Below are positions 58,500-64,000 of a stretch of 64,000 bases of DNA, piece by piece. How positions within the stretch are numbered: the first letter of the stretch is position 1; each line of letters opens with the position of its first letter. Both the position numbers and the translations under genes were made by a program. The stretch is taken from the NCBI GenBank assembly GCA_009782565.1, contig WRIU01000012.1, positions 5,070 through 69,069 of the forward strand, read 5' to 3'. A model generated the notes under the pieces. The model did not search any database and was not told the origin of the DNA. It was given only the letters and a program-made list of their open reading frames with translations. The stretch is from Betaproteobacteria bacterium (GTDB lineage Bacteria; Pseudomonadota; Gammaproteobacteria; Burkholderiales; Rhodocyclaceae).

Positions 58500-58781
58500 A
58501 TGTCGATTCAATCCTTCTACTGCCCTGACACAAAAGCCTTGTTCGAGCGTCAGCGCGTCGCCCAGTTTGCCAATATTCAGGCCGTAGCGCGGCGCAAGCT
58601 GGAGCAGTTGCACATGGCTGGGCGGTTGGACGACCTGCGTGTACCGCCCGGCAACCGGCTGGAAAAACTCTCCGGCGACCGGGAAGGCCAGTGGAGCATC
58701 CGCATCAACGACCAGTGGCGTGTTTGCTTCGTCTGGACAGGGGAAGATGCAGAATGCGTCGAAATCATTGACTACCACTGA
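58500..58781 (+). CDS. higB: HigB-type (RelE superfamily) toxin, a plasmid-maintenance killer protein.
   Basis: The protein is 93 aa with PPGNRLEKLSGDREGQWSIRINDQWRVCF, which is typical of this family. Confidence 0.88.
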   Translation: MSIQSFYCPDTKALFERQRVAQFANIQAVARRKLEQLHMAGRLDDLRVPPGNRLEKLSGDREGQWSIRINDQWRVCFVWTGEDAECVEIIDYH

Positions 58782-58793
58782 CGGAGAGCACTC

Positions 58794-59102
58794 ATGAACA
58801 AGAAGCTCAGCCCCATCCATCCCGGCGAAATCCTGCGGGAAGAATTCCTGATACCGCTCGGCATCAGCCAATACCGGCTCGCCAAGGAAATTGGCGTTCC
58901 TGCACAGCGCATTGGTGAAATCGTAGCAGGGCGGCGAGCCATCACCGCCGATACCGACCTGCGCCTGTGCCGCTTCTTCGGCCTTTCCGAAGGCTATTGG
59001 CTGCGCGGGCAGGCGCGTTTTGACACGGAAACGGCCAAGGACGCCCTCGCGTCGCAACTGGCGAAAATCACGCCGTGGCACATGGAAACCGCTCACGCCT
59101 GA
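58794..59102 (+). CDS. higA: HigA-type HTH antitoxin.
   Basis: The sequence HPGEILREEFLIPLGISQYRLAKEIGVPAQRIGEIVAGRRAITADTDLRL is present. The gene starts 12 nt after higB. Confidence 0.9.
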   Translation: MNKKLSPIHPGEILREEFLIPLGISQYRLAKEIGVPAQRIGEIVAGRRAITADTDLRLCRFFGLSEGYWLRGQARFDTETAKDALASQLAKITPWHMETAHA

Positions 59103-60264: not shown

Positions 60265-62277
60265 ATGCCGCAACCACCCGCCCCCGTGTTCAACCCGATC
60301 ACCGGCGCGCTCCGCGCGCTTGCCATCGACGCCATTCAAAAAGCCAACTCCGGGCATCCCGGCGCACCGCTCGGCATGGCGGAAATCGCCGAAGTCCTCT
60401 GGCGGCGCACGTTGAAACACAACCCCGCCAACCCCGATTGGCCAGACCGCGACCGCTTCGTCCTCTCCAACGGGCACGGTTCCATGCTCATCTACGCCCT
60501 GCTCCACCTCACGGGCTACGATCTTTCCATCGACGACCTTAAAAACTTCCGCCAGTTCGGCTCCAAAACCGCCGGGCATCCGGAAACCGGCCACACGCCC
60601 GGCGTGGAAACCACCACCGGCCCGCTTGGGCAAGGCATCGCCAACGCCGTCGGTTTCGCGCTTGCGGAAAAACTGCTTGCCGCCGAATTCAACCGCCCCG
60701 GCCACACCATCGTCGACCACCACACCTACGCCTTCATGGGCGACGGCTGCCTGATGGAAGGCGTCTCCCACGAAGCCTGTTCCCTCGCGGGCACGCTCGG
60801 CCTCGGCAAACTGATCGCCTTTTACGACGACAACGGAATTTCCATCGACGGCCACGTTGAAGGCTGGTTTACAGACGACACGCCAAAACGCTTTGAAGCC
60901 TACGGTTGGCAAGTCATCTCCGACGTTCCCGGCCACGACCCCCAGGCCATCGAGGCGGCGCTGGCCGCTGCGCGAAAGGAAACCCGGAAACCCTCGCTCA
61001 TCTGCTGCAAGACCGTCATCGGCATGGGTTCCCCCAACAAGGCGGGCAGCCACGACTGCCACGGCGCGCCATTGGGCGCGGATGAGATTGCCGCCACGCG
61101 GGAAGCCATCGCTTGGCCGCATTCCCCGTTTGAAATTCCCGCCGACGTCTACGCCGCCTGGGATGCACGGCAAAAAGGAAAATCGCTCGAAGCCGACTGG
61201 CAACAGCGGTTCGATGCCTGGCGCGCCGCCTTCCCCGAACTTGCCCTTGAGTTCGAGCGCCGCGTCATCCGGCGGGAGCTTCCCGCCGACTGGCTTCAGG
61301 TTGCAGCGCAGACCATCGCCACTTGCAAGGAAAAAGCGGAAAACATCGCCACCCGCAAAGCCAGCCAAAACACGATAGCCGCCCTGCTCCCTCATCTGCC
61401 GGAACTCTTCGGCGGCTCCGCCGACCTTGCCGGTTCCAACCTGACCTTCGTCAAGGGCAGCCGGGGCATGACGGCTCTTGAGGGCGGCAACTACTGCTAC
61501 TACGGCGTGCGCGAATTCGGCATGACCGCCATTGCCAACGGGCTGGCGCTCCACGGCGGCCTGATTCCCTACACCGCCACCTTCCTCGTCTTCTCCGACT
61601 ATGCCCGCAACGCCATCCGCATGGCCGCGCTCATGCGCCAGCGGCAAATCATGGTCTACACCCACGATTCCATCGGCCTGGGTGAAGACGGCCCCACGCA
61701 CCAACCCGTCGAACATATCCCAAGCCTGCGCCTGATTCCCAACCTCGATGTCTGGCGGCCATGCGACGCCGTGGAAACGGCAGCAGCCTGGATTGCGGGC
61801 ATCGAGCGCACGGACGGCCCCACCCTGCTTGCCCTCTCCCGGCAGAACCTGCCCACCGTCACAGGCAACATCGACGCGGACGACATCAAAAAAGGCGGCT
61901 ACATCCTCGCCGAAGCCGAAGCCGGAGCGCCTCAAGCCATACTCATCGCCACCGGTTCCGAAGTCAAGCTGGCGCTCGACGCCAAGGCCGCCCTGGAAAA
62001 AGAAGGCATCCCCACCCGCGTCGTCTCCATGCCCTCCACCAACGTCTTCGACCGCCAAAGCCCGGAATACCGCCTCAAAATCCTCGGCCAGCACGTCCGC
62101 CGCATCGCCATCGAAGCCGCGCACGGCGATTTCTGGCGCAAATACGTCGGTCTGGATGGCTCAATCATCAGCATCGACACCTTCGGCGCTTCAGCCCCGG
62201 CGGGGAGGCTGTTTGAGCATTTCGGGTTTACTGTCGGGCATGTGGTGAAGGCAGTGAAAGGCGCAACAAGCGCATAG
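60265..62277 (+). CDS. tkt: Transketolase.
   Basis: The protein is 670 aa with [30 protein letters not shown] and [13 protein letters not shown]. Confidence 0.97.
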
Positions 62278-62307
62278 CCAAAACACAAAGAGAAATAAAC
62301 CGGTGGC

Positions 62308-62413
62308 AAAATAAAACAGTCCGGCAGGTTTCCCTGCCGGACTGCTGGATACGAATTGCGTTAAAAACGCATTTCTTATTGTAGCAACGGCTCTCACCCC
62401 GGATAGCCACAAT
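62308..62413 (-). ncRNA. tracrRNA: Candidate type II-C tracrRNA: a 36-nt anti-repeat, a nexus-like hairpin and a terminator.
   Basis: The minus strand reads ATTGTGGCTATCCGGGGTGAGAGCCGTTGCTACAATAAGAAATGCGTTTTTAACGC...CAGTCCGGCAGGGAAACCTGCCGGACTGTTTTATTTT. The core CCGTTGCTACAATAAG matches my memory of the N. meningitidis tracrRNA. It lies directly upstream of, and divergent from, cas9. Confidence 0.75.
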
Positions 62414-62420
62414 ACTGAAA

Positions 62421-62449
62421 ATTATGAGGGAGGAAGACATGCTTGGCAA
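62421..62449 (-). promoter_or_regulatory. Putative sigma70 promoter of the tracrRNA.
   Basis: On the minus strand TTGCCA, a 17-nt spacer and CATAAT lie 7 nt before the first A of the anti-repeat. The -35 box lies inside cas9 codons 2-4 on the other strand. Confidence 0.4.
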
Positions 62450-64000
62450 GCCCACCGATCCGCTCACTTTTGGTTTCGACATTGGCATTGCCTCGGTCGG
62501 CTGGTGCGTACTCGGCGAAAAACATATCGTTGATCTTGGTGTGCGTTGCTTCGACAAGGCAGAAACTGCCAAGGAAGGCGAATCGCTCAATCTCGCCCGC
62601 CGTACCGCCCGCCTCATGCGGCGGCGTCTGCGTCGCCGCGCGTGGCGATTGACCAAACTGGCTCGCCTATTGAAACGCGAGGGGCTGATCGACAGCGTCC
62701 AAACCATACACCAACCTGCCGCAAAATCGCCGTGGCAGCTTCGTGTAGAGGGGCTGGATCGAAAGCTCGCGCCACAGGAATGGGCACAAGTTCTTTACCA
62801 CCTCTGCAAGCATCGCGGTTTTTACTGGATCAGCCGTGCGGAAGAAAAAAAAGCCGAAGCAGACGGGGAAGGCGGCAAGGTCAAGAAGGGTTTGCAGGAT
62901 ACCAAGCGCCGCATGAATGAAAAAAATTACCGAAGCGCGGCTGAAATGGTGCTGAAGGAATTTCCCGATGCACAGCGCAACAAGCAGGGTGAATACAGCA
63001 AGGCACTTTCCCGCCTTCTGCTTGCCGAAGAACTCGTCTTGCTGTTCAAGCGCCAGCGCGAATACGGTAACCCCCACGCAACGCCCGATCTCGAAACGCA
63101 CATTGTTGGATGCGGCGACCGCAAAAGCGGTTTGTTCTGGGAACAAAAACCGGCTCTATCCGGGGAAAAACTGCTGAAGATGCTTGGACGCTGCACTTTT
63201 GAAAAAAGCGAATACCGTGCTCCCAAGGCCAGTTTCACTGCCGAACGCCACGTCTGGCTGACACGCCTCAACAATCTGCGTATCGTCGTCGGTGGAAACG
63301 CACGTCCGCTCAATGAAGCCGAACGCAGCATTGCCTTGCCCCTACCCTATCAACAGGCCAGTGACTTTACTTATAAGCAGTTGAAAAGCGCCTTGTTCAA
63401 GGCGGGTTTATTGCCTGAAAACGTCAGATTCACCGGGCTGGCTTATCCAACACAGCAAACCGAAAACAAAGCCAAAGACCCGGAATCTGAACGGCTAGTC
63501 AAACTTCCCGCTTGGCAGGAACTACGCAAAACTCTTAAAGAAAAAGGGCTTGAAACCGAATGGCAAAGTATCGCCGGAGCCGCCGCCGGAGGACAACCCG
63601 AACTGCTCGACCAAATCGCCTGGACACTCAGTGTCTTCAAGGACGGCGATGAGGTTGAACGAGAATTACGCAAACTCTCCCTACCGGGTGGAGAAAAGAT
63701 GATCGAGGCACTCAGCGAAATCAGCTTCGACAAGTTTCACAATCTGTCTCTCAAGGCGCTCCGCAAGATCGTTCCTCACATGGAAGCCGGCTTGCGCTAT
63801 GACGAGGCATGCGAAAAAGCTGGTTATCATCACAGCCAGTTATTCAAAGCAGGAGAAGGCCAGTACAAATACCTGCCTCCTTTCTACTCTGGCCGTGATA
63901 AAGATGGCCGCATGGTATTTGATGACAAGGAGGACATTCCACGTAATCCGGTTGTTCTTCGTTCACTCAATCAAGCGCGCAAAGTGCTGAATGCGTTGGT
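62439..64000 (+). CDS. cas9: Type II-C CRISPR-associated endonuclease Cas9. Only the N-terminal ~520 aa are present, because the gene is truncated by the window end.
   Basis: Manual translation gives MLGKPTDPLTFGFDIGIASVGWCVLGE.. (RuvC-I). It also shows an Arg-rich bridge helix (RRTARLMRRRLRRRAWRL) and ends in ..IPRNPVVLRSLNQARKVLNAL just before RuvC-II. The frame is open from 62439 to the window end, and GAGGGAGGA precedes the ATG. Confidence 0.95.
   Translation, partial: MLGKPTDPLTFGFDIGIASVGWCVLGEKHIVDLGVRCFDKAETAKEGESLNLARRTARLMRRRLRRRAWRLTKLARLLKREGLIDSVQTIHQPAAKSPWQLRVEGLDRKLAPQEWAQVLYHLCKHRGFYWISRAEEKKAEADGEGGKVKKGLQDTKRRMNEKNYRSAAEMVLKEFPDAQRNKQGEYSKALSRLLLAEELVLLFKRQREYGNPHATPDLETHIVGCGDRKSGLFWEQKPALSGEKLLKMLGRCTFEKSEYRAPKASFTAERHVWLTRLNNLRIVVGGNARPLNEAERSIALPLPYQQASDFTYKQLKSALFKAGLLPENVRFTGLAYPTQQTENKAKDPESERLVKLPAWQELRKTLKEKGLETEWQSIAGAAAGGQPELLDQIAWTLSVFKDGDEVERELRKLSLPGGEKMIEALSEISFDKFHNLSLKALRKIVPHMEAGLRYDEACEKAGYHHSQLFKAGEGQYKYLPPFYSGRDKDGRMVFDDKEDIPRNPVVLRSLNQARKVLNAL

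Follow-up and report, generated by a model that had tools for sequence, protein, structure and literature searches.

The stretch of genomic DNA considered here (64,000 nt, referred to as the window) comes from an uncultured termite-gut betaproteobacterium and carries a transketolase gene (tkt) followed by the start of a cas9 gene. The question raised by this locus is whether the short segment between the two genes encodes the tracrRNA of the adjacent CRISPR-Cas9 system, as a first-pass annotation had proposed. As discussed below, repeat pairing, co-variation and similarities to the Neisseria meningitidis (Nme) guide RNA make it very probable that the minus-strand segment 62308-62413 encodes the tracrRNA of an N. 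meningitidis-like type II-C CRISPR-Cas9 system. The features referred to in the text are:

62444-62449, minus strand: predicted -35 box TTGCCA, inside cas9 codons 2-4 on the opposite strand
62439-64000, plus strand: cas9, first 520 codons; the open reading frame runs off the window edge
62427-62436, plus strand: putative cas9 Shine-Dalgarno sequence GAGGGAGGAA, as read from the sequence, inside the spacer of the predicted tracrRNA promoter
62421-62426, minus strand: predicted -10 box CATAAT, with a 17-nt spacer, 7 nt before the anti-repeat and abutting the cas9 Shine-Dalgarno sequence
62378-62413, minus strand: anti-repeat ATTGTGGCTATCCGGGGTGAGAGCCGTTGCTACAAT, nt 1-36 of the predicted tracrRNA; pairing with the repeat of locus L132, and co-variation
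62353-62375, minus strand: stem-loop 1, GAA.UGCGUU-UUU-AACGCA.UUC, 23 nt; predicted fold and compensatory changes
62347-62352, minus strand: linker GUAUCC, predicted to be single-stranded and near-invariant in alignment A1 (columns 82-87)
62315-62346, minus strand: stem-loop 2, predicted intrinsic terminator with 14 pairs and a GAAA loop; scan and fold
62308-62314, minus strand: U-rich tail, predicted 3′ end of the tracrRNA and end of the module; T-run scan
16408-16545 of contig L129 (~66672-66809 in window coordinates, past the window end): IS21-family element

The cas9 locus and its extension beyond the window

The tkt open reading frame (60265-62277) has transketolase Pfam domains. The open reading frame that begins at 62439 carries the RuvC-I motif DIGIASVGW and matches the Cas9 model TIGR01865 with 767 bits. 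Upstream of an inositol-phosphatase gene and tkt there is also a toxin-antitoxin pair (58500-59102), comprising a HigB-like toxin (58500-58781, plus strand) and an HTH_3 antitoxin (58794-59102, plus strand), as identified by Pfam on identical contigs.

The operon was followed beyond the window on other contigs. Exact look-up of the complete tkt protein gave two contigs, L129 and L130, which share 12 kb with the window at 100% identity. They supply cas1 and the full cas9, which occupies 12175-15516 of L129 and encodes 1113 aa, and each breaks off at an IS21 end shortly past cas1. Scans of genomes and metagenomes with the Cas9 fragment gave 128 related loci, the contig of the window itself not being among them; the relatives are up to 91% identical, and the scans also gave L055/L127, which ends 33 codons into cas9. 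A Cas2 homolog search and three contig look-ups led to L132, from a near-identical rather than an identical strain; over 3,754 nt of cas9-cas1, its identity to L129 is 98.2%. This locus is without the IS element, and its cas9, cas1 and cas2 genes are directly followed by an array of at least 68 repeats. A further locus, L133, is 98.4% identical in cas9-cas1, has the same repeat as L132 and is likewise without IS21. Cas1 is of the NMENI type and Cas2 was also identified. As seen in L132 and with the same order in relatives, the operon consists of cas9-cas1-cas2 plus an array, without csn2 or cas4.

In the 64-kb window there is no CRISPR array. It holds no tandem repeats at all, the plus-strand complement of the anti-repeat matches only itself there, and the repeat predicted from relatives has no match. 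The homology of L129 and L130 with relatives breaks off at the last cas1 codon, and the 138 nt after cas1 correspond to the left terminus of IS21-family elements that occur in 130 plasmid records. The cas2 gene of relatives begins exactly where the IS21 sequence begins in the window's strain; the insertion is located precisely at the cas1 stop/cas2 start junction, and Cas1 is lengthened by 17 codons. These contigs indicate that, in the organism of the window, IS21 splits the operon from its cas2 gene and array. Because the IS21 element at the cas1/cas2 junction ends every contig, the array of this strain is out of reach, and it might have been lost or displaced. The insertion strikes the adaptation module and constitutes a non-routine aspect of the locus.

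Parts of the predicted tracrRNA

Read on the minus strand from 62413 to 62308, the predicted RNA is ATTGTGGCTATCCGGGGTGAGAGCCGTTGCTACAAT-AA-GAAATGCGTTTTTAACGCAATTC-GTATCC-AGCAGTCCGGCAGGGAAACCTGCCGGACTGTT-TTATTTT, 106 nt in total. The parts follow in the order sigma70-like promoter, 36-nt anti-repeat, stem-loop 1, GUAUCC linker, and terminator hairpin with U-tail; the 5′ end of the anti-repeat is 26 nt from the cas9 start codon, and stem-loop 1 begins 2 nt past the anti-repeat. Much of this anatomy had been described in the first-pass annotation. The 36-nt block followed by AAG is present on the minus strand (62413 to 62378), as are the tail TTTTATTTT (62316-62308), the length of 106 nt, and the GC hairpin with a GAAA loop, whose 12 bp at 62344-62317 were lengthened by the scan to 14 pairs (62346-62315). 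The small hairpin placed between block and GC hairpin exists as well, but AAAT before it and AATTCGTATCCAG after it had been left out; the structure is in fact the 23-nt stem-loop 1 (62375-62353).

The whole RNA is predicted to fold with -49.5 kcal/mol (z = -6.65), and none of 200 shuffled sequences folded as well. The promoter-like sequence TTGCCA-17-CATAAT agrees with the consensus at 10 of 12 positions and is the sole site of its kind in 62000-62800, compared with 0.3 sites in shuffled sequences. As to the linker, the family consensus is G(U/A)A(U/C)CC. RNAalifold proposed a helix between the linker and GGGU of the anti-repeat, which was dropped as it shows no two-sided change; the linker is more likely a protein-contact motif that would contact Cas9. 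The terminator hairpin could also act on transcripts coming in from tkt, while its U-tract serves the minus strand only.

Pairing with the CRISPR repeat

The L132/L133 repeat, read opposite to cas9, is GTTGTAGCTCCCTCTCTCACCCCGGATTGCTACAAT. With this repeat, which is that of a 98.2%-identical strain and not of the window strain's own array, 31 of the 36 positions of the window anti-repeat (62378-62413, minus strand) are paired, in agreement with the complementarity expected earlier. The duplex is composed of helix 1 (positions 1-8, 8 bp), an internal loop of 5 nt (positions 9-13) with one C-G pair, and helix 2 (positions 14-36, 23 bp). In helix 2, there is one extra U-U mismatch with the L132 repeat at position 28/9, and the same mismatch is present in L004, an array of 105 repeats. 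The predicted gain upon cofolding is -28.8 kcal/mol relative to -3.7 +/- 2.9 kcal/mol for shuffled repeats. No other site in the 64-kb window, the remainder of cas9-cas1 or the cas2 region has more than 26 pairs, and a better anti-repeat is thus absent from these regions. The repeat that had been predicted from the plus-strand complement agrees with the L132 repeat at 29 of 36 positions: the start GTTGTAGC is correct, while the end is CTACAAT instead of CACAAT, a G-U wobble.

These pairing data bear on the identity of the RNA. Small CRISPR-associated RNAs of another kind, the scaRNAs, occur in connection with type II loci, that of N. meningitidis among them, and have a guide-RNA-like structure (PMC13431127); the segment could be such a regulator with the true tracrRNA encoded elsewhere. 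However, the segment is the only strong repeat complement in the 64 kb and the rest of the operon, and the same holds for relatives with 10-kb flanks. Moreover, the whole repeat is complementary, and in the duplex geometry of Nme. We regard a scaRNA-like function as highly improbable compared with that of a tracrRNA.

The plus strand also pairs with the plus-sense repeat, at 29 of 36 positions, because the repeat ends are partly palindromic. This raises the question of whether the plus strand is the functional one, with an array that would be read in the same sense as cas9 and a block that would act within the 5′ leader of cas9, by pairing with repeats or as a regulatory element. Such an arrangement could also account for the transcription start that cas9 needs upstream of its Shine-Dalgarno sequence, given that a separate cas9 promoter was not found (see below). 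In contrast, the minus-sense pairing is better in every locus, with 30-33 versus 28-30 pairs in the ungapped register, and with 28 versus 25-27 pairs in loci with 37-nt repeats. The promoter and the terminator T-run are on the minus strand only, and the Nme-identical UGAGAnCCGUUGCUACAAUAAG followed by the stem-loops is read on that same strand. In addition, the arrays of Nme and other II-C systems are transcribed opposite to the cas genes (PMC3737331, PMC7708072). A functional plus strand has, accordingly, as little probability as the scaRNA alternative. For the tracrRNA reading, the strand of the anti-repeat together with the canonical GTTGTAGC...ACAAT reading is the reason why the crRNA-sense repeat is placed on the strand opposite to cas9, where it would be transcribed.

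Conservation and co-variation in the family

The element is present upstream of cas9 in 112 of 131 loci, which gives 87 unique sequences. Of the first 56 loci, 35 carry an array, located ~4.6 kb downstream from where cas9 begins. In 33 of these 35, the best or tied-best non-array complement of the repeat is likewise on the minus strand, in the corresponding position immediately upstream of cas9. Both helices are paired at nearly every position in all 28 loci that are in register, and the internal loop is always kept. At position 27/10, 17 of these 28 loci have a U-A pair and the other 11 an A-U pair; further co-varying positions are 8/29, 24/13, 26/11 and 32-34/3-5. The cognate duplexes have a mean predicted energy of -51.8 kcal/mol versus -15.2 kcal/mol for shuffled partners in the same 28 loci.

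Nearly all of the 87 sequences share the same two-hairpin 3′ design. In alignment A1, 97.3% of the cells in the 3′ hairpins are paired, to be compared with 84% in shuffles and 27-51% with a slid partner, and compensatory change is seen in all 12 pairs of the stem-loop 1 base and the terminator stem. Two-sided changes occur at three of three aligned base pairs in stem-loop 1 and at nine of nine in stem-loop 2, where 96.6% of the cells are paired. Of 58 distinct versions of stem-loop 1, 56 are predicted to form a single hairpin (median z -4.1), mostly with GAAA or UUCG loops. A -35/-10 pair at a fixed distance is present in 75 of the 87 family sequences compared with 1.7% of 45-mers drawn at random from these loci, and the gap between the -10 box and the anti-repeat is 5-7 nt in 70 of these 75 promoters. 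In relatives with other genes upstream, the homology to the window begins at 62294-62305, i.e., at the 3′ end of the terminator. Because the homology starts there, the element is part of the cas9 module rather than an appendage of tkt.

These features argue against the view that the segment is a decayed orphan CRISPR repeat beside a transketolase terminator rather than a functional RNA gene. The plus strand does look like a degenerate repeat, being identical to the L132 repeat at 29 of 36 positions, and the hairpin lies 38 nt past the tkt stop codon. Yet the element travels with cas9 and not with tkt, its T-run exists on the minus strand only, and the promoter is kept on that strand at a fixed distance. 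Furthermore, the anti-repeat co-varies with the repeat of its own locus with preservation of the internal loop, and the hairpin shapes are maintained by compensatory changes. An orphan repeat is very improbable on this evidence, if marginally less so than the two alternatives discussed above.

One distant locus departs from the arrangement. L053, a Cellulosilyticum MAG with a Cas9 that is 41% identical, has a 13-repeat array of a related repeat but lacks an anti-repeat upstream of cas9; the tracrRNA must accordingly be encoded at another place in the locus.

Comparison with known type II-C systems

The full Cas9 has 6JDQ, 6KC8 and 6JDV as its top PDB matches (E 1e-241, full length), which we take to be structures of Nme1Cas9. 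The RNA components point in the same direction and support the Neisseria-like character that the first-pass annotation had noted in the anti-repeat. The string UGAGAGCCGUUGCUACAAUAAG, which is the 3′ half of the anti-repeat plus AAUAAG (UGAGAnCCGUUGCUACAAUAAG on the minus strand), is identical at 21 of 22 positions to the scaffold of the published Nme sgRNA, the sequence of which was taken from PMC9674691, and the first 19 nt of the repeat are identical to the Nme repeat at 18 positions. A chimera of the window RNA and the L132 repeat has a predicted fold like that of the Nme sgRNA. The duplex geometry is as in Nme, with an 8-bp helix followed by an internal loop that contains a lone C-G pair, and then by a long helix; the offset of stem-loop 1 equals that in the Nme guide, and a second stem-loop comes next, again as in Nme. 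The length is ~106 nt here versus ~110 nt for the primary Nme tracrRNA (PMC3737331). In contrast, the distal half of the duplex is unlike Nme (CACCCCGGAU... here, CAUUUCGCAG... in Nme), the sequences of stem-loop 1, linker and terminator are unrelated to their Nme counterparts, and the host, an uncultured betaproteobacterium of the termite gut, does not belong to Neisseria.

The anti-repeats of II-C systems are mostly located upstream of cas9 (Chylinski et al. 2013, PMC3737331). In Nme, transcription of the array runs counter to that of the cas operon (PMC3737331), and the array and tracrRNA of the window's system would likewise be read opposite to cas9. The II-C systems of Pasteurella multocida, P. 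pneumotropica and Defluviimonas have the same layout (PMC7708072); these and the systems in the catalogue of Chylinski et al. have an anti-repeat upstream of the cas genes, partial complementarity to the repeat and an array in the opposite orientation, as is the case here. Hence, the architecture, with a tracrRNA gene upstream of and divergent from cas9 and an array opposite to it, is that of a standard type II-C system; in this respect the locus is ordinary and biologically adds little. Relative to other II-C catalogues, the family described here comprises 112 loci with co-variation and is known from sequence alone. The repeat/tracrRNA family (GTTGTAGCTCCCTCTCTCACCCC...) appears in no searchable paper.

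The alignment to Rfam that the first-pass annotation had suggested turned out to be uninformative. Within 61500-64000 and at E <= 10, there was no tracrRNA match, the score of the family covariance model not being reached, and the four matches obtained are chance matches. The Rfam tracrRNA family, which represents the same functional class as the element here, is presumably RF02348 and built on Streptococcus-type II-A sequences. The absence of a match is in line with the published view that tracrRNAs of different subtypes have no sequence or structure in common (PMC3737331). With more than 100 loci, the members form a coherent tracrRNA family that is absent from Rfam, and their alignment could seed a covariance model.

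Model for guide RNA formation

The combined data suggest the following model. The sigma70-type promoter (-35 at 62449-62444, -10 at 62426-62421) would start the RNA at ~62413-62415, directed away from cas9, and the intrinsic terminator (62346-62308) would end transcription to give an RNA of ~106 nt. Nucleotides 1-36 would then pair with the 36-nt repeat in crRNAs made from the strand opposite to cas9, while stem-loop 1, the GUAUCC linker and stem-loop 2 would form the scaffold bound by Cas9. The resulting crRNA:tracrRNA:Cas9 complex would cleave matching DNA. Transcription, the RNA ends, processing, Cas9 binding and activity are inferences in this model.

If the model holds, the repeat, anti-repeat and scaffold provide a ready-made guide design for an Nme-like Cas9 of 1113 aa that originates from uncultured bacteria resembling Rhodocyclales. 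A candidate sgRNA would have the layout spacer + GUUGUAGCUCCCUCUCUCACCCCG-GAAA-CGGGGUGAGAGCCGUUGCUACAAUAAG..., continuing into the window scaffold.

A predicted tracrRNA promoter that overlaps the cas9 start

The first-pass annotation had placed the tracrRNA promoter over the start of cas9, and this is borne out: the TTGCCA-17-CATAAT sequence (62449 to 62421) is present and the arrangement is kept across the family. The cas9 ATG (62439) falls within the spacer of the promoter. In the class to which the window belongs, the ATG is 24-31 nt from the tracrRNA 5′ end, inside the promoter spacer, and in the Dechloromonas-type class this distance is 39-44 nt. In most relatives, the cas9 start is called with a Shine-Dalgarno sequence.

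A promoter in the cas9 sense was found neither in the scan of the window (62000-62800) nor, as a positionally conserved site, in the 87 relatives. One candidate was the complement of the anti-repeat, in which CACAAT might act as a repeat-like cas9 promoter; it was rejected since it has no -35 box or TG extension and the hexamer varies in relatives (GCTACATG, GCTACAAA). In the plus direction, the terminator hairpin is not followed by a U-run. With no recognizable cas9-sense promoter, the cas9 mRNA may start inside or beyond the tracrRNA gene. In this scenario, cas9 may be read through from upstream, with a leader that is antisense to the tracrRNA, and transcription of tracrRNA and cas9 would be head-to-head and overlapping, as had been proposed. 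The conserved overlap between the tracrRNA promoter and the cas9 start, with no visible cas9 promoter, is a non-routine feature of this family.

That the tracrRNA promoter interlocks throughout the family with the ribosome-binding site and ATG of cas9 raises the possibility of a regulatory device, which we consider rather doubtful. If such a device were to operate, the two polymerases would be in competition for one stretch of 40 bp, and the levels of Cas9 and tracrRNA would be coupled by promoter occlusion or through an RNase III-sensitive duplex between the tracrRNA and the leader. The ratio of Cas9 to tracrRNA is of consequence, given that spacer acquisition in meningococci is under the control of apo-Cas9 versus RNA-loaded Cas9 (PMC12477760).

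Repeat ends and possible crRNA promoters

The crRNAs of II-C systems initiate at promoters embedded in the repeats (PMC12477760). The L132 repeat ends with TGCTACAAT, which resembles an extended -10 element like that of the repeat-embedded crRNA promoters of Nme, and many relatives are without the TG. In a comparison that covered the arrays of L132 (4151-9504), L001, L004, L006 and L067, this end was seen in only part of the family, and in most relatives the repeat 3′ end is AGCTACAAT or GGCTACAAT. The strength of the predicted crRNA promoter may therefore differ between lineages.
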